From Candidatus Sericytochromatia bacterium (GTDB lineage Bacteria > Cyanobacteriota > Sericytochromatia > S15B-MN24 > VGJW01), in the NCBI GenBank assembly GCA_035285865.1, contig JAYKHS010000028.1, positions 1-64,000 of the forward strand: DNA of 64,000 nucleotides, in the 5' to 3' direction. The notes under the pieces were generated by a model. The model searched no databases. It was not told the DNA's origin and saw nothing but the letters and a program-made list of their open reading frames with translations. Positions within the stretch are counted from its first letter, which is position 1. Each line of letters starts with the position of its first letter. This document shows, piece by piece, positions 22,084-31,965 of this stretch. A program made the translations under genes and the position numbers.

Positions 22084-22704
22084 ATGTTCAAGCGCACGCT
22101 GCTCGGTGCCCTGGTTGCCGGGACCCTCTCGGCCTGCGGCACCCTGCCCGGCGTCACGACCCTCGGTTCGGGCGACGATGCCACGACCGCAGCGACCCGC
22201 AACTTCTATTCGGTGATGGGCCTCGGCGATGCCGTCTCGGCAGAGGACGCCGCCACGGGCGATGTCTCGGTACCTGGCCAGCCGCCCGACCGCGAGGCAC
22301 GCATGAGGGCTCGGTTCGCCAGGTTCGATGCCAATGGCGATGGTCAGGTCAGCTATGACGAATTCCTTGCGGCCGCTCCCGGTCCCCGACAGGGAGTTCC
22401 GGATGCCGGTGCCGTCTTCGATCGGATCGATGATGATGCCAGTGCCGGGATCGGCAGTGACGAGTTCCGTGCGGGCTGCGACCGAAAGGGACGTCCGGGC
22501 CCCGGCGAGATGAAGCGCGGTGGCAAACGTGGTCACGGTCCAGGGCGGGGTGGGCGCCGCGGCCATCACGGTGCCAATATGGGCCGGCCACATCAGGACG
22601 GGCTCGAGGCTCCGCGTCCCGAGCCGTCTGCTTCCGTGCCCCCCGCAGTCGAGCAGCCCGCCCCCGACGCACCGGCGAACGAGTTGTCGGTCCTGCAGGG
22701 TTGA
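22084..22704 (+). CDS. EF-hand lipoprotein (paralog 1)
   Basis: AGGAG RBS; lipobox LSAC; DANGDGQVSYDEF and DDDASAGIGSDEF. Confidence 0.8.
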   Translation: MFKRTLLGALVAGTLSACGTLPGVTTLGSGDDATTAATRNFYSVMGLGDAVSAEDAATGDVSVPGQPPDREARMRARFARFDANGDGQVSYDEFLAAAPGPRQGVPDAGAVFDRIDDDASAGIGSDEFRAGCDRKGRPGPGEMKRGGKRGHGPGRGGRRGHHGANMGRPHQDGLEAPRPEPSASVPPAVEQPAPDAPANELSVLQG

Positions 22705-22710
22705 GGCTGC

Positions 22711-22753
22711 GGTCTTCGGCCCTTCCGAAGCGTATCCGGGAGGGCCGAAGACC
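22711..22753 (+). terminator. Long stem-loop between the EF-hand paralogs
   Basis: GGTCTTCGGCCCT...AGGGCCGAAGACC 13-bp inverted repeat. Confidence 0.55.
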
Positions 22754-22887
22754 AAGGGTCAAGGCCGGGTAAAGATTCCGCTCGGGCCTGCTTGAGAGCG
22801 GTCGTGTAAGCAGCCCTGTAAGCAGATATCGCGATGATGCTATTGTGGTTGTTGTTGCCTGATGGGCCGTGTCCGAAGGGATTGCCG

Positions 22888-23523
22888 ATGAGACTTTTGC
22901 TGCAGGGCGCCCTGGCGCTTTCCCTTCTGGCCGGTTGCGGCATGATTCCGGGCTTGCCCGGTGCCGCCGACGACGAGACCACGGCCCAGACCGAGGCTTA
23001 CTACCGGACGATGAGCGCTGACGAGGCTTCCGGTTCCGTTGCGGTCGATCCGCGGGCCGATCGCATGAGAGCGCACTTCGCGCGCATCGACGCCAATGGC
23101 GACGGTCAGGTCAGTTACGAGGAATTTCTCGCGGCCGTTCCCGCTGGCGGCCGCGGCATGCCGAAACCCGGTGACGTCTTCGATCGCATCGATGACGACG
23201 GGGACGGGCGCATACGCGGAGACGAGTTCCGTGATGGCCACCGGCGGGGCGGCCGCCCCGGCCCCGGAGCCCGCAAGCGCGGTGGCAGGCACGGGCGCGG
23301 CAAGGGTCACCCGTCGATGGGGCGTCCTCCTTTCCCTCCGCCTTTTCCCCCGCCCTTCGGTCATCCGGGACGTCCTCCTTTCCCGCCCCCGGCTTCCGGC
23401 GACCTGCCGCCAGCACCTCCGCCGGCATCGGGTGACCTGCCGCCCGCACCGCCGCCGGCCACCGGCGATCTGCCGCCTGCGCCGCCGGCAACGGAAGACG
23501 CACCGGTCGTTCCGGCCGAGTAG
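22888..23523 (+). CDS. EF-hand lipoprotein (paralog 2) with Pro-rich tail
   Basis: Lipobox LAGC; DANGDGQVSYEEF and DDDGDGRIRGDEF. Confidence 0.8.
   Translation: MRLLLQGALALSLLAGCGMIPGLPGAADDETTAQTEAYYRTMSADEASGSVAVDPRADRMRAHFARIDANGDGQVSYEEFLAAVPAGGRGMPKPGDVFDRIDDDGDGRIRGDEFRDGHRRGGRPGPGARKRGGRHGRGKGHPSMGRPPFPPPFPPPFGHPGRPPFPPPASGDLPPAPPPASGDLPPAPPPATGDLPPAPPATEDAPVVPAE
23386..23484 (+). repeat. Three 33-nt coding repeats PPA(S/T)GDLPPAP
   Basis: Visible in the translation of paralog 2. Confidence 0.8.
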
Positions 23524-23838: not shown

Positions 23839-23902
23839 CCGGCTCCAGTCGAGGTACCGTGGCTGAAGCCACAGGCAATCGGTGATCTCCGTCGCTTTTC
23901 TG

Positions 23903-23914
23903 GAACGCCTGTTC
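23903..23914. promoter_or_regulatory. Putative LexA (SOS) box
   Basis: GAAC-GCCT-GTTC, ending 17 bp before the ATG at 23932. Confidence 0.6.
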
Positions 23915-23931
23915 GGTCACGATAGAGGTTC

Positions 23932-24780
23932 ATGATCACCCCTTGGACCGAGGCGGCACAGGCCTTGCGGGAAGGCCGGTACGACGAGGCCCTGCCCGTG
24001 CTCCTCAAGGCTTCCGGCGGTCAGGTCGCGCGCCTCAGGCCGTTGGTGCGGGTCCTGTGCACGGCAGGCCTGCCATCCAGAGCCGTCGCCCTGATACGCG
24101 GCTTGCTGGCCGAAGGTCATGCGGCGACTGCCGAGGCCTTGGCTGCCGACATGCTGGATGCCGGCATCCATGAGGCCGCCGTCTACTATCTGCAGGCCAG
24201 CGCGACCGCGGCCATGGGGCGTGCGGAGACCGCCATCGACCTGATTCGCGTCGGCATGGCGTTCGATGCCGAACCCGCGCGTGCACAGGCGGAGCTTGCC
24301 TTGATCCTGGTGTCGCTGGGGCGCCATGAGGAGGCCTTGCTCGCCTTTGCGGAGGCCCGGGCCGAGCGGGGCCCCCTGCGTTGGCGCGAGGGCTATGGCC
24401 TGGCCCTCGCCATGACCGGACGCCAGGCTGAGGCCCGTCGAGTCTTCGAAGGCATCCTCGCCGAGCTACCCGGGCACGCGTTGGCCGAACGCGCCTTGGC
24501 TGCGCTTCGTCCACCCGGCCGCGAGGAATTGATCCGTCGCCTGCACGCCCGTCTCCGACCCAGGGGCAGTGTCCTGCTCAACCGCCTGATCGAGGGTCCG
24601 GCAACCGAGGCCGAGCTGCAGCAGGTCTTGCGGGACGCGTCCCATCCTGCCGGTCTGATTCGCGCGGTGATTGCGGAAGTGGCGCGTGCGCTGACGTTCG
24701 GTCACGCTTCACTGGTCGTCGCCCACGAAGGTACCTACGCGCTCGCCTGGTCCTTGCTGGACCTGGAGGGCAGCGCGTGA
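23932..24780 (+). CDS. TPR-repeat protein with possible C-terminal winged-helix
   Basis: AQAELALILVSLGRHEEALLAF, GLALAMTGRQAEARRVF; helical C-terminus ending in a beta-hairpin-like segment. Confidence 0.7.
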   Translation: MITPWTEAAQALREGRYDEALPVLLKASGGQVARLRPLVRVLCTAGLPSRAVALIRGLLAEGHAATAEALAADMLDAGIHEAAVYYLQASATAAMGRAETAIDLIRVGMAFDAEPARAQAELALILVSLGRHEEALLAFAEARAERGPLRWREGYGLALAMTGRQAEARRVFEGILAELPGHALAERALAALRPPGREELIRRLHARLRPRGSVLLNRLIEGPATEAELQQVLRDASHPAGLIRAVIAEVARALTFGHASLVVAHEGTYALAWSLLDLEGSA

Positions 24781-25115
24781 CGGGGGCGTCTTCCGTGGTC
24801 TCCGTTTCGCGGGTTCGCATGACCGATCGGGCTTGGCTGGCCGCTTTTCGCGCGGCCAAAGTGCTTTGTGCGGCCCTGAAGCCGGAGGACGAGTTCCTCG
24901 AGATTCGGGCCCTGCTCCGGATTGTGCCTGCCGTGGCCCGTGCTGCCGGTTGGTCGTGTCGTCCGCCCGAGGTCGAGGAGGCCTTCGGGAGGCTATTCCA
25001 CCTGCTCGACTGGGAGGCTCGCAAGGGTCGCGACGCCCGCAAGTTCGTACGCCTCGCCGATCGTTACGGCCAGTTCGAGCCCTTTGTCCTCATCAAACTG
25101 CAGGAGAACGCCTGA
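24777..25115 (+). CDS. Small hypothetical protein, translationally coupled on both sides
   Basis: GTGA overlap upstream and TGATG overlap downstream; GGAGG RBS. Confidence 0.65.
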   Translation: MTGASSVVSVSRVRMTDRAWLAAFRAAKVLCAALKPEDEFLEIRALLRIVPAVARAAGWSCRPPEVEEAFGRLFHLLDWEARKGRDARKFVRLADRYGQFEPFVLIKLQENA

Positions 25116-26476
25116 TGATTCCCGAAGCCACCGCAACCGCTGCCGTCGAGAGTCCCGTGCCTACCCGTGAGGAACGCTTCCTCGCCGAGGGCATCATCCG
25201 TGCCCTGAAGCTGGGCTTGGTGCCCCAACGGGGCGTCGAGCGCGTCGTCGTCGGGCGACGGCGCGAGATGGACCAGCTGCGGAGGGACCTCGAGTACGTG
25301 GCCCAGGGTGGGGCCGGCGTGAAGTTCCTGTCCGGCGACTACGGTTCCGGCAAGACCTTCCTGTGCAGCATGGTGCGCGAGGCGGCGTGGGAGCAAGGGA
25401 TGGTCGTCTCGGTGGTGGACCTCGGGCGTAACGTGGCCCTGCACAAGCTCGAGACCATCTATCAGCAGGTCATGGCCGGCATGAGGACCCGTGAATTGCC
25501 GGGTACGCCTGCCTTCGACAGTCTGGTGCAGCAGTGGCTCTTCGGGCTCGAGGACGAGGTTCAGCGTACCGAGGGTCTCGATCCACTCAAGGATGAGGAT
25601 CGGCCGGTCATCGCCCTGCACGTCGAGCGCCGCATCCAGTCCGCGCTCGCTCAGGTCAGTGTTTTCGACAGCAGCTTCGCGAACGCCTTCCGGGGTTACT
25701 ATGCCGCCATCCAGCGCGAGGACGGCATCACGGCCGATGCGGCGTTGGGCTGGCTCAAGGGCGAGCAGAACATCCCGCAGGAGCTCAAGGGCCGCCTGCA
25801 TGTCAAGGGTGGTGTCAGCCGGGCCAATGCCTTCGCCTTCCTGCGAGCGATGAACAGTCTGCTGCTTTCCATGGGTTACAAGGGCCTTGTCGTCATCTTC
25901 GACGAGACCGAGCTGGTGCGTGGCCTGAACCGCGCGGACCTTCGCCAGGCGGCCTACGAGAACATCAAGATGTTCCTCGATCGCTCGGCCATGGGCGACC
26001 TGCCCCACGTCTATGCGCTGTTCGCCGGCACCGAAGACCTCTTCGCCGACGAGCAGAAGGGCATCCCCAGCTATCAGGCCTTGCACGATCGCATTCGCCC
26101 GCGTCATCCCGGCATCGCCGATGGCACCGTTCAGGAAGTGCGTGGAGCCATCCTCAAGCTGGACGGGTTCTCAAGGGATCGCCTGATCGAGGTCGCCATC
26201 AAGGTTCGTGACCTTCATGGACGCGCCTATGCCTGGGAGCCGGCACATCGCCTCGACGAACCCTTTCTCGCGGACTTCGCCGATCACCTGTCCACGCGTT
26301 TCGGGAAGGCCGCGCCGACCTTCCCGCGAGGTTTCCTGAAGACGCTCGTCGACCTGCTGGACCTTTGCGAACAGGACACGGCCTATGATCCTCGTCGGGA
26401 TTTCGCCCCATCCGAGCGCACGGTCGAGGCCATCCGGGCGGTCGAGGAGCAGGAGGCGCACCTGCTTGACTTCTGA
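25115..26476 (+). CDS. DUF2791 / BrxD-like P-loop ATPase (Shango SngB-like)
   Basis: ALKLGLVP..VGR; Walker A GDYGSGKT; GYKGLVVIFDETE; GIPSYQALHDRI; PRGFLKTLVDLLD. Confidence 0.85.
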   Translation: MIPEATATAAVESPVPTREERFLAEGIIRALKLGLVPQRGVERVVVGRRREMDQLRRDLEYVAQGGAGVKFLSGDYGSGKTFLCSMVREAAWEQGMVVSVVDLGRNVALHKLETIYQQVMAGMRTRELPGTPAFDSLVQQWLFGLEDEVQRTEGLDPLKDEDRPVIALHVERRIQSALAQVSVFDSSFANAFRGYYAAIQREDGITADAALGWLKGEQNIPQELKGRLHVKGGVSRANAFAFLRAMNSLLLSMGYKGLVVIFDETELVRGLNRADLRQAAYENIKMFLDRSAMGDLPHVYALFAGTEDLFADEQKGIPSYQALHDRIRPRHPGIADGTVQEVRGAILKLDGFSRDRLIEVAIKVRDLHGRAYAWEPAHRLDEPFLADFADHLSTRFGKAAPTFPRGFLKTLVDLLDLCEQDTAYDPRRDFAPSERTVEAIRAVEEQEAHLLDF

Positions 26477-28688
26477 GGCCGTTGCCGGGAGCACCGAAGG
26501 GCGCGAGACCGACCTGCTGCATCCCCAGATGCGGCGCCGCATCGCCGACCGCCTCGGCTGGCCGGACTTGAGGCCGGCACAGAAGCTGGCCGTGCCGCCC
26601 ATCGTCTCGGGTCGCCACGCGCTCGTCATCGCACCCACGGCCGGGGGCAAGACCGAAGCAGCCTTCTTTCCGCTGTTGTCCCGGTTGCTCGAGGTCGGCG
26701 CGGCTCCGATGTCCGTCGTCTATGTTTCGCCCCTCAAGGCGCTCATCAACAACGTCGAGCCCCGACTGGCCCGGTATGCGGCCATGGCCGACCGGACGGT
26801 CTTCCGATGGCATGGTGACGTCGGTGCCGGACAGCGTGCTGCCTTCGTCCGCGAGCCGGCCGATGTCCTGCTGACGACACCCGAAAGCCTCGAGGCCCTG
26901 TTCATGGGGGGGCGCCAGGGCGTGTTCGCCGAGGTCCGGGCCGTGGTCATCGACGAGGCCCATGCCTTCGCGGGGACGGACAGGGGCGTGCAGTTGGCCT
27001 GCCTGCTCGAGCGCCTGGCTGCGGTCAGTCGCCATCACGTGCAGCGCATCGCGCTGTCGGCCACGCTGGGAAATCCCGAAGCCTTTCTGGATTGGCTGTG
27101 TGGCTCGGACAAGGGTGCGCGCGAGGTCGTCAATCCCGCCCGCTCTGGCATTCAGCGGCGGTTCGTGCTTCGTCACCTCGAGGACGGGGATGTCGGGGAC
27201 GTGGCCCGCGCGGCTGCGCCGCACCTGCGGGGTCGCAAGGCGATGTTCTTCACGGACGCCCGCCGTCTGGCAGAGGCTCTGGTCCCCGCGCTGTGCGCCG
27301 AGGGCGTTCCTGCCGTCATTCACCATGCCAGTGTCGATCGCAGCCTGCGCGAGGAGGTCGAGCAGGAGGTCGTGCGCGCCGAGGAGAGCTGTCTCGTGTG
27401 CACCAGCACGATGGAGATGGGCGTGGACGTCGGCGATGTCGAGGCGGTGCTGCAGCTGGATGCTCCGCTCAGCGTCGCGTCCTATCTGCAGCGCATGGGG
27501 CGTGCAGGCCGACGAGGCAAGCCGGGCCTGATGGTGGTGCTCACCGACGATCGCGACGCTTTTCTGCGTGCCGTGGCCCTGACGACACTGGCCTTGCGGC
27601 GCTGGGTCGAGCCCGTGGCATTGCCCGAGCGTGCCTGGACGGTCCTGGTGCATCAGGTGCTGGTGCGGGTCCTCGCGCGTCGTCGCGTCGCCGTGGATGA
27701 GCTGTACGCGGAGCTTGCCTGCAATGTCCCGTTCCGCGGTATCCGGGCCACCGAGTTTGCGGTGCTGGTGGACCACCTGTGCGGCCTTGGCCTGCTCGAG
27801 CGTGTCCGTCATCAGGTCCAGCTGGGCTACGGGGCCGAGCGTCAGTTCGGGCAGGCGCACTTCAGCAGCCTGTGTTCCGTCTTCGCCGAGGGCGAAGAGC
27901 AGTGGCAGGTCATGGCCGGCGGTCGTGCCATCGGCGTGATGGATGCGTCCTTCCTGCGCAAGGCAGCGGCCGAAGGCGGGTTCATGCTGGCCGGCAAGGC
28001 CTGGCGGGCCGTGCGTGTCGACGAGGGGCGGCGGCGCGTCGTGGTCGAGGGCATGTCGGCCGGCGAGGGCGGCCGGGCACCGCGCTGGCGACAGGCCGGC
28101 AGCGTCGCCATGGATGGTCGGGTTGCCGAAGAGATGCGGCAGCTTCTGGTTCAGGACGAAATGCCGTCGTGGCTTGATGCACCGGAACAAAGCCTCTTGT
28201 CCGAGCTTCGGAACGAGGCTGCCGTCCGGGGGCTTCGGCCGGACGCCTTCCCCGTCTGGAAGGCGCGAGGTGCCGTCGAGCTGCGCACGATGGCCGGCGA
28301 GTCGCGGAACCGTGCCCTTGCGCTTGCGCTTGCCGATGCTCTGCAGGCCCGAGCCACCGTGCGTTGGGATCGGGTGACGCTGCGGTCGGGTCGGCGGGGT
28401 GTTCGCCTGTCGGCCGGGGACATCGTCCGCATCGTGGACGACTGGGCCGAACATGGCCTGACGTCGTCGGATCGATCGGCCATTCTCCGCGGCATCGGGC
28501 CTACGCCCGGTTCCCGCTTCGAGCCCTATCTGCCGCAGGCCTTTGCCGAGGAAGTTCGTGCCGCCGAAAGGGCCGATGTCGAGGGCCTGGAAGCGTGGTT
28601 GCACACCTGTCGGCCAATCCTGGTGGTGCCGGCTGTCTACGAACCCGAAGGGGATGCCGAGGACGAGCTCATCGAGCCCACGGTTTGA
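26466..28688 (+). CDS. Lhr-like DEAD/DEAH SF2 helicase (Shango SngC / BrxH-like)
   Basis: TTG start with AGGAGG RBS; LGWPDLRPAQ, APTAGGKT, TTPESL, DEAH, SAT, HHAS, TSTMEMGVDVG, QRMGRAGR. Confidence 0.9.
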   Translation: MTSEAVAGSTEGRETDLLHPQMRRRIADRLGWPDLRPAQKLAVPPIVSGRHALVIAPTAGGKTEAAFFPLLSRLLEVGAAPMSVVYVSPLKALINNVEPRLARYAAMADRTVFRWHGDVGAGQRAAFVREPADVLLTTPESLEALFMGGRQGVFAEVRAVVIDEAHAFAGTDRGVQLACLLERLAAVSRHHVQRIALSATLGNPEAFLDWLCGSDKGAREVVNPARSGIQRRFVLRHLEDGDVGDVARAAAPHLRGRKAMFFTDARRLAEALVPALCAEGVPAVIHHASVDRSLREEVEQEVVRAEESCLVCTSTMEMGVDVGDVEAVLQLDAPLSVASYLQRMGRAGRRGKPGLMVVLTDDRDAFLRAVALTTLALRRWVEPVALPERAWTVLVHQVLVRVLARRRVAVDELYAELACNVPFRGIRATEFAVLVDHLCGLGLLERVRHQVQLGYGAERQFGQAHFSSLCSVFAEGEEQWQVMAGGRAIGVMDASFLRKAAAEGGFMLAGKAWRAVRVDEGRRRVVVEGMSAGEGGRAPRWRQAGSVAMDGRVAEEMRQLLVQDEMPSWLDAPEQSLLSELRNEAAVRGLRPDAFPVWKARGAVELRTMAGESRNRALALALADALQARATVRWDRVTLRSGRRGVRLSAGDIVRIVDDWAEHGLTSSDRSAILRGIGPTPGSRFEPYLPQAFAEEVRAAERADVEGLEAWLHTCRPILVVPAVYEPEGDAEDELIEPTV

Positions 28689-29106
28689 TGATGACGAGGG
28701 CGACGATCCCGATCATCAGCAGGGTGGGGACCTCGTTCAGGATCCGCAGGCGCGTGTCCGAGGGCACCGTCTCGTTTGCTGCGAGCTTGCGCCTGAGCGG
28801 AAGAGCGGCGTGGTGGACACCCGTCATCAGGACCACCAGGGCCACCTTCCCGTGCAGCCATGGCTGATGCCACAGGGAGGGTTGCACGGCGGTCATGCCG
28901 AGACCCAGCAGCCACGTCGCGACCATCGCCGGGTTGGCGATGTAGGTGTAGAGTCGGCGCTCCCACTCGACCAGGCGCGTGCGCACGACCGGCTCGGTCT
29001 CGGTGCCGTGGTAGACGAACAGGCGGAAGAGGTAGAGCAGGCCTGCCATCCAAGCGATGACCGCCACGACATGCGCGGTCTTGAGCACGACGTACAGGAT
29101 GTCCAT
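28669..29106 (-). CDS. hemJ: Protoporphyrinogen oxidase HemJ
   Basis: KTAHVVAVIAWMAGLLYLFRLFVYH, ERRLY..IANPAM, WLHGK, NEVP, IIKP. Confidence 0.92.
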   Translation of the reverse strand: MDILYVVLKTAHVVAVIAWMAGLLYLFRLFVYHGTETEPVVRTRLVEWERRLYTYIANPAMVATWLLGLGMTAVQPSLWHQPWLHGKVALVVLMTGVHHAALPLRRKLAANETVPSDTRLRILNEVPTLLMIGIVALVIIKPWAR

Positions 29107-29196
29107 GGCGCCATTCTAGCCCGGATTGTGAAGGGTTCTTGAAATCTGTGGCCTTCAGACGTTCAGCCGCACGATAGCCTTGCGGGGGGACGGCTC

Positions 29197-30135
29197 ATGA
29201 GCGTGGCGATGCGTGGCGTGGCGACTGCTGACCTGAGGGCGCGGACCGGAGCGATTGCCGTGCCTGCGGCTGCTGCCGAGGTGCCGCAGGTCGCGCGAGC
29301 GGCCACCGATGTCCTCTCCCTGTCCCGCGCCTCACGTCCGATGCCCTATGCCGGAGTGGCGGCTCCGTCCGTGCCCTCATCCGGCGTGCTTGGCCGCATC
29401 CAGCAGGGCTTCAGTCAGGCGACAGCGGGTGCTCGAGGGTTGCTCTCCCAGGTCTGGCAGCGTTTCCAGCAGGTTTTCCTCGGTGGACGCCGGAACATGC
29501 CGGCAGCCGTCGAGCAGCGCGCGGCACGCGCGTCCGTCAATCGGGCCGTGGCCGAGACCGCAGCGCGCAACGGCAATTCGGGCCTTGTTCGGGATCCGGC
29601 GACGCAGGCTCGTGTGCAAGGGGTCCTTGATCGCCTTGCTGCGGCGGCAGGCAACGGTCGCAGTTACAAGGCCGTCGTGCTTGATGATGCCCAGCCCAAT
29701 GCCTACTCGATGGGTGGCGGATACATCGCGATCACGCGGGGCATGCTGGGCAAGCTCCAGTCGGATGACGAGCTGGCTTTCGTGCTCGGGCACGAGGTGA
29801 CGCACGACCGCAATCGGGACGTCATGGGCGGTATGGCGCTGGACATGGAGAAGAATCGTCTGGCGGGTCTGCTCATGCGGATTCCGGGCGGCAGGCAGGT
29901 GGTGGGTCTGTTCCAGAAGATGACCGAAGCCATCACGCAGGCCGTGGAGTTCCAAGCCGACGCCGGCGGTCTTGACCTGGCGCGTCGGGCGGGCTACGAC
30001 GGGACGGCGTCCGTCCGCCTGAACCAGCGCTTCCTCGAAGAGCTCAAGGGTCAGGGTGGAGCAGACGTCGGGACGACCCATCCTCCCTTCGTGGAGCGCA
30101 TCCGGAAGCTGTGGGACCGCCTGCGCGGCGCGTGA
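29197..30135 (+). CDS. M48 family zinc metallopeptidase
   Basis: PNAYSMGGG, ELAFVLGHEVTH, EFQAD, THP..ERI. Confidence 0.85.
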   Translation: MSVAMRGVATADLRARTGAIAVPAAAAEVPQVARAATDVLSLSRASRPMPYAGVAAPSVPSSGVLGRIQQGFSQATAGARGLLSQVWQRFQQVFLGGRRNMPAAVEQRAARASVNRAVAETAARNGNSGLVRDPATQARVQGVLDRLAAAAGNGRSYKAVVLDDAQPNAYSMGGGYIAITRGMLGKLQSDDELAFVLGHEVTHDRNRDVMGGMALDMEKNRLAGLLMRIPGGRQVVGLFQKMTEAITQAVEFQADAGGLDLARRAGYDGTASVRLNQRFLEELKGQGGADVGTTHPPFVERIRKLWDRLRGA

Positions 30136-31032: not shown

Positions 31033-31680
31033 TCAGCCCGTTTCGACCACCCGTCGGAACGTCAGGTTGACTCGCATGCCGACGGCTCGGGTCGAGCGGG
31101 GCAGGCAGTGCTCCCATGCCGTCTGGGTGCCCTCGGCCATCAGGAGGAGGCTGCCATGTTCCAGCATCATGTCCAGTCGCCGGGTCCTGTCCTTGCTGCG
31201 GAAGCGGAAGCGCCTCGGCGCCCCGAGGCTGATCGAGGCAACCACCGGATCGGGTCCCAACTCCCGTTCGTTGTCGGCGTGCCAGCCAACGCCATCTCGG
31301 CCATCCCGGTAGAGGTTCGCCAGCACGGCGTTGAAGCGTTGACCTGTCGTCTCTTCGATGCGCCTCCGCAGATACTCAAGGGTTGGTGTCCATGGTGCCG
31401 GCAGGTGAAGACGGCCCGAGTAGCGGTAATGGCATCCTCGCTCTCCGTGCCAAGCCGTGAGCCGAGGGGCCGGCACTTCCTTGCCGCAGATGCGCAGCAC
31501 TGGCTGCTCCCAAGGCAGGCTCGCGAGAAGATTGGCCAGGACTGCGTCCGCTTCCGGGCACCCCAGCCAGAAGGGCCAGAGCGTGACGGGCGGTTCCGAG
31601 GCCGTCAGGATCCCGGGCGTTGCCAGCTGCAGCGGGGTTTGCTCTTGATGCGCCGGGTGGCACGGGCGTGCTTGTAGCAC
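31033..31680 (-). CDS. alkB: AlkB family 2OG-Fe(II) dioxygenase (ALKBH2/3-like); start uncertain
   Basis: PRLTAW, YRYSG, FNAVLANLYRDGRDGVGWHAD, HGSLLLM, WEH, RVNLTFR. Confidence 0.9.
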   Translation of the reverse strand: MLQARPCHPAHQEQTPLQLATPGILTASEPPVTLWPFWLGCPEADAVLANLLASLPWEQPVLRICGKEVPAPRLTAWHGERGCHYRYSGRLHLPAPWTPTLEYLRRRIEETTGQRFNAVLANLYRDGRDGVGWHADNERELGPDPVVASISLGAPRRFRFRSKDRTRRLDMMLEHGSLLLMAEGTQTAWEHCLPRSTRAVGMRVNLTFRRVVETG

Positions 31681-31898
31681 GTCAGGACCGTGTCGCCCTT
31701 GGCCGTCACCAGGACCGTGAGGCCGACCAGATGGCCGTGGGTCCGCAGCAGGGCTGCCGTCAGGTCCTTGCGGCGAACGGTATAGAAGGTGGCTCCGGCA
31801 CGGTGAAGCACGTGGCCGAAGTGGCGTGCGAAAGCGATGGCTTCTTCCGCGATGGCGCGCTGGCTCATGCGCAGCTGGGCATGCTTCGTCAGGTTCAC
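31605..31898 (-). CDS. DUF4258-like small protein
   Basis: GGAGAAGG RBS before GTG; LTKHAQLRMSQRAI..FG..VLTCYK. Confidence 0.65.
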   Translation of the reverse strand: MNLTKHAQLRMSQRAIAEEAIAFARHFGHVLHRAGATFYTVRRKDLTAALLRTHGHLVGLTVLVTAKGDTVLTCYKHARATRRIKSKPRCSWQRPGS

Positions 31899-31953
31899 GG
31901 CCTTCTCCGTCGATGACTCGAGCTTACAAGGCATGTCATCCCCGAATATGCGG

Positions 31954-31965
31954 GAACCTATGTTC
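31954..31965. promoter_or_regulatory. Putative LexA (SOS) box
   Basis: GAAC-CTAT-GTTC in the AT-rich region upstream of DUF4258-alkB. Confidence 0.6.

Follow-up and report, generated by a model that had tools for sequence, protein, structure and literature searches.

A resident relative of the Shango and BREX motor genes with an exchangeable front end in Candidatus Sericytochromatia

Two described systems come closest to the four-gene operon analyzed here, which lies in the first 64,000 nucleotides (the window) of contig JAYKHS010000028.1 from a Candidatus Sericytochromatia metagenome-assembled genome (GCA_035285865.1, labeled G000; 83% complete). Shango, as outlined in preprints, is an anti-phage system composed of SngA (domain order TerB_N-TerB-TerB_C), the DUF2791 ATPase SngB and the helicase SngC. 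In type 2 BREX (bacteriophage exclusion), BrxD is described as an AAA+ ATPase of the ORC/Cdc6 type without extra DNA-binding domains and is proposed to load the helicase BrxHI, and the type 2 PglZ protein is described as ending in a winged helix-turn-helix (wHTH) (PMC12839542). The main text of that paper contains no mention of Shango, TerB, SH3 or tetratricopeptide repeat (TPR) proteins. A literature search found no description of the architecture reported below; Anantharaman 2012 or the supplement of PMC12839542 may list such loci.

The operon encodes a TPR protein ending in a domain that we call W (TPR-W), a small protein, X, an ATPase and a helicase (Table 1). The gene coordinates and junctions confirmed a sequence-only reading of this DNA as four overlapping genes behind a palindrome. 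The junctions are GTGA between TPR-W and X, TGATG between X and the ATPase, and an 11-nt overlap of ATPase and helicase if the helicase begins at its probable TTG start, which has GGAGG 9 nt upstream. The palindrome, GAACGCCTGTTC, sits 17 nt 5' of the TPR-W ATG. Pfam detected TPR_14, TPR_16 and TPR_19 in TPR-W, PF10923 (BrxC_BrxD) in the ATPase with an E value of 3e-107, and DEAD, Helicase_C and WH_Lhr in the helicase. The motor motifs are intact: Walker A GDYGSGKT (25334-25357), Walker B FDE, DEAH, SAT and QRMGRAGR. The genome has a single PF10923 gene, and relatives whose ATPases are 89-96% identical to its product are assigned to Ca. Sericytochromatia or Tanganyikabacteria.

By sequence, the module is related to the anti-phage motors of Shango and BREX. 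The ATPase scored 294 bits with the PADLOC BrxD model versus 224 with SngB, and 290 bits with the NCBIfam BrxD model NF033438, below its 350-bit cut-off. The helicase scored 612 bits with BrxHI versus 427 with SngC (E = 5e-128); as a DEAH helicase downstream of the ATPase it is also of the SngC type, although BrxHI scores higher. PADLOC gave no match for TPR-W or X, and the ATPase profile matched no solved structure. In three trees the ATPases linked to W or X form one side of a branch with support of 99, 83 and 95, apart from Shango and BREX-2. All trees were quick searches, and a long Deinococcus row was left out of the latest one. In the helicase tree, sequences of f7 group with those of the Halanaerobiales-type locus L093 (support 95), and those of f1 have no supported union with them (f1 and f7 are family labels within the host's class). 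The helicase shares a RecA1-RecA2-WH core with the Lhr-like group of repair helicases as described in PMC8301817. It differs from these in that Pfam detected neither Domain 4 nor HTH_42, its scores lie below the NCBIfam Lhr cut-offs and it is coupled to a DUF2791 ATPase. Further ATPase-helicase dyads, with uncharacterized upstream proteins, occur at L089 (G044), L036 (G022) and L120 (a Deinococcus plasmid); the trees place them as sister to BREX-2 BrxD, and a W match was absent in the two tested. Loci L041 (G005:C155), L042 (G007:C47) and L043 (G004:C106) each hold a tandem pair of DUF2791-like ATPase matches that are very divergent.

TPR-W occupies the position of SngA, yet it matched neither TerB, TerB_N nor TerB_C (Pfam) nor SngA (PADLOC), whereas a true SngA (L039), the positive control, matched all three TerB-type families. 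By these models it is therefore not ordinary Shango, as the lack of a recognizable TerB domain had led the sequence-only reading to expect; the module would work in a Shango-like manner yet lacks the TerB domains that define Shango. It shares with Shango the order partner-ATPase-helicase, the ATPase and helicase families, the lack of a methylase or nuclease, and a partner ending in a small domain, which W weakly resembles. It differs in having TPR in place of TerB_N and TerB, in the extra X gene, in an ATPase of a separate clade (about 30% identity) and in being resident in the data seen, where Shango is plasmid- or island-borne. By the curated models it is not BREX-2 either, and tblastn of the 83%-complete genome gave no match to PglZ, PglY, DUF6079, BrxA or SngA at E ≤ 1e-4, and no PglX or pglW reading frame was seen beside the operon (no genome-wide search was made for these two). 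The best PADLOC models and an upstream gene that, like PglZ in PMC12839542, ends in a (here predicted) winged helix are shared with the brxD-brxHI pair of type 2 BREX/Pgl; the undetected PglZ and PglY, the sub-threshold ATPase score and a position outside the BREX-2 BrxD clade are not.

The AlphaFold2 model of TPR-W (predicted local distance difference test score 89) has TPR helices at residues 4-191 followed by W at residues ∼197-281, a predicted winged helix. The conserved part of this first gene is W, not the TPR region. Searches with the whole protein found close kin only, and Foldseek with the whole model found only TPR-like repeats among the matches listed. A narrow W profile matched nothing outside f1 at E ≤ 0.001; a broader one, among 201 genomes of the phylum, matched in f1 and f7 only. 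At five loci of ∼60% GC the protein encoded before X combines an SH3_3 domain and a hydrophobic helix with a C-terminal domain that matches W (probability 94%). The order at L093 is BrxA-like, a DUF6079 (BrxC-like) ATPase ending in W, X, ATPase and helicase; over the part covered, L093:1-9849, this is a BREX-like locus. In all six f7 genomes the match to W lies in the tail of a WD40 protein of ∼1,100 aa, whose gene is unlinked to X plus ATPase (four of six) and to a lone helicase (five of six), the parts being kept at three separate loci. Here the connection to W is weaker, with per-genome E values of 3e-5 to 9e-4 and P 0.1 when TPR-W and WD40-W are compared directly; it is supported by the restriction of the W match to genomes holding other module parts. 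X is missing from three genomes (G004, G005 and G007) in which TPR-W, the ATPase and the helicase are present. The neighborhood survey bore out the co-occurrence on which the sequence-only reading depended: the TPR-W and X genes travel with the ATPase-helicase pair in other genomes, and wherever the DNA upstream of a clade ATPase is readable, W, X or both lie directly before that ATPase. Because W ends the upstream partner across lineages with differing front parts, these comparisons describe a conserved module whose front end can be exchanged: TPR, SH3 plus a membrane helix, a BrxC-like ATPase or, by the weaker match, WD40 stands in front of W.

X has no Pfam family. It is nevertheless not the orphan for which it had been taken, but a member of a small family (35 representatives) that, in distantly related bacteria, directly precedes the BrxD-like ATPases of a single clade and, outside this operon, is mostly the C-terminal domain of proteins of 217-290 aa. 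It is predicted to be a stand-alone winged helix, with Cdc6/ORC1 among the tied best matches, a fold match that is not specific; an atlas search returned only scores of ≤0.77. In P0036, P0038, P0039 and P0040, X is fused to an EVE-like N-terminal domain. EVE-like domains are readers of modified bases.

We tentatively read the four genes as one resident Shango-like DNA surveillance machine, most likely acting against invading DNA. A loader scheme is rather probable: the TPR front would detect a trigger, the BrxD-type ATPase would receive from W and X, in trans, the DNA-contacting winged helix missing from it, and the Lhr-like helicase would then be loaded by the ATPase, most likely onto invading DNA. 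W and X are proposed for this role because ORC/Cdc6 relatives of BrxD have a winged helix and BrxD does not. ORC1/Cdc6 initiators combine AAA+ and C-terminal winged-helix domains, and BrxD is classed in their AAA+ clade in PMC12839542; the module differs from them in placing its winged helices on separate genes and in having a superfamily 2 helicase, not MCM, as partner. Binding among the proteins and to DNA, loading, the trigger and an anti-phage outcome are what we infer. Defence as the purpose has close to an even chance.

The same machine could also be a housekeeping one, a domesticated loader-helicase whose substrates would be stalled forks, R-loops or crosslinks and which LexA would control in some species; we regard this as plausible but short of probable. 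Several features favor it. The operon is resident and syntenic, its GC content and neighbors look native, its parts persist in f7 after operon break-up, it includes no effector gene, and module members were not found on plasmids or viral contigs. Mycobacterial Lhr is reported to be mitomycin-inducible and to protect against crosslinkers (PMC9841417). Against this, repair alone poorly explains the membrane-anchored SH3 and the WD40 front ends, the relatives that were tested are defence systems, and the distribution is patchy, since searches of the 33 class genomes outside f1 and f7 found neither W nor X. The distribution fits an old defence module turned resident, or a repair module.

The LexA-type box in G000 and G002 also favors the housekeeping reading, and its decay at three of four orthologous sites counts against it. 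The sequence-only reading had called the palindrome LexA-type, and GAAC-N4-GTTC is indeed the LexA-type motif of the host, near-consensus copies of which stand before recA, before lexA and before a gene that by eye looks imuA-like. Taken alone, the pattern shows no genome-wide enrichment: it occurs 44 times with a 4-nt spacer versus 13-60 times with spacers of 0-12. The operon box has a perfect core and ranks 15 of 276,433 intergenic positions by a weight matrix whose training set included two doubtful sites and a duplicated one; it scores ∼13 bits versus 17-19 for the clearest SOS sites. Fifteen positions reached its score versus 5.4 in shuffled intergenic DNA, and because the 15 include training sites, a chance origin is possible. 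Perfect in G000 and G002, the box scores 0.4-4.6 bits in G001, G003 and G004 (three of four orthologous sites decayed), while G001 and G003 kept their recA and lexA boxes. It was not found before the G005 gene or at the f7 and SH3-type loci examined, and G030 (f7, 93% complete) carries the module with no LexA match. The box lies within a position-conserved 55-nt block that is nearly invariant in G000, G001 and G003, where DNA further upstream diverges, and recognizable by eye in G004, its core being damaged in G001, G003 and G004. A sigma-70 scan found no promoter. A short reading frame across the box was rejected, as it is not conserved as protein. Because the box is middling and decayed at most orthologous sites, SOS control is unproven and not general, and the proposed induction by DNA damage is weakly supported. 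LexA control of the operon in G000 has slightly less than an even chance, and we regard it as local, not a trait of the module.

The front and rear of the operon differ in affinity. TPR-W and X (23932-25115) are closer to G002 (81/88%), which shares the perfect box, than to G001 and G003 (67/75%); the ATPase, helicase, HemJ-like and M48 genes (25115-30135) show the reverse. This discordance may reflect an old swap or lineage-specific acceleration. A recent swap of the TPR and X block was rejected: the amino acid identities are discordant, but four-fold sites give no support. The ATPase is 91-97% identical while about half of its four-fold sites differ.

It is improbable that the operon is a highly diverged Shango in which TPR-W is SngA minus TerB_N and TerB, with TerB_C kept. 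The gene order is alike, a tree constrained to unite the f1 ATPases with Shango is no more than marginally worse (approximately unbiased test, p-AU 0.055), and pooled W aligned in register with TerB_C over 56 columns (probability 27%, P 7e-4), against P 0.046 over 14 columns for the LexA winged helix used as a control. However, TPR-W alone gave no signal against TerB_C, including a mostly cyanobacterial TerB_C alignment, X is not present in the Shango loci examined, and the missing TerB and SngA matches and the preference of both motors for BREX models also speak against it. W is in addition weakly in register with the C terminus of PglZ (P 0.008-0.04, and 0.013 in the comparison that gave the TerB_C value); we treat both weak likenesses as a lead, not as shown homology. 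The operon might instead be the remnant of a decayed BREX system, a brxD-brxHI dyad that has picked up unrelated genes at its front. This would accord with the PglZ likeness and with the BrxA and DUF6079 genes of L093, but it is disfavored and very unlikely given four intact genes, the conserved ATPase protein sequence, the retention of W and X across phyla and ATPases outside the BREX-2 clade.

Table 1. Coordinates of the operon and of related sites (window positions unless a contig, C, is given)
Feature	Position	Strand	Details and basis
TPR-W protein gene	23932..24780	+	282 aa; putative sensor/adaptor; Pfam, AlphaFold2 model, W homology
X gene	24777..25115	+	112 aa; stand-alone predicted winged helix
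BrxD/SngB-family (DUF2791, PF10923) ATPase gene	25115..26476	+	453 aa; Pfam, PADLOC, NCBIfam, trees
Lhr-like SF2 DEAH helicase (BrxHI/SngC-like) gene	26466..28688	+	∼740 aa; start inferred from sequence
Conserved upstream block, likely promoter/leader	23877..23931	+	conservation in congeners
LexA-type palindrome GAACGCCTGTTC	23903..23914	.	medium score; operator not conserved
G000 LexA-type sites	C1:8046, C9:3410, C25:20975, C19:39607/39630, C20:54267/54295, C4:43263-43303		Gram-positive-type GAAC-N4-GTTC

The operon is flanked by genes for EF-hand proteins, a HemJ-like UPF0093 protein and an M48 peptidase (Pfam). Just upstream (22084-23523) is a pair of paralogous genes for EF-hand, lipoprotein-like products that have proline-rich tails; congeners carry one or two copies. 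In G007 (L031:5688-7454, minus strand) and G005 (L032:1941-3515), an N6/N4 DNA methyltransferase gene is located on the opposite strand, two genes beyond the helicase. Short tandem GC-rich repeats lie upstream of the TPR-W gene of G004 (L030:2990-3250). In G000, tandem LexA-type boxes precede two small unannotated reading frames and an IscA/HesB-like gene (names by eye). A second perfect palindrome in the window (31954-31965; 10 bits by the weight matrix) stands 19 nt before a 109-aa reading frame (31605-31934, minus strand), which has no Pfam match and adjoins an AlkB-like frame (31033-31680, by eye).

The clade bears on how Shango works and on what BrxD-BrxHI contribute to BREX-2. With two unannotated domain families, W and X, it isolates a common grammar of variable front end plus winged helix, ATPase and helicase, in small soluble parts. 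More speculatively, and on balance unlikely, Shango, BREX-2 and this module could all be versions of one split bacterial ORC/Cdc6-like loader, with the winged helix on an exchangeable partner (TerB, PglZ, TPR, WD40, SH3-membrane or BrxC-like) that sets when and where the Lhr-like helicase is loaded; this clade would be its minimal resident form, partly under SOS control. If true, this would explain what SngB and BrxD do. The module allows a direct test of whether a winged helix in trans turns BrxD into a helicase loader and whether swapping the front end changes the trigger.
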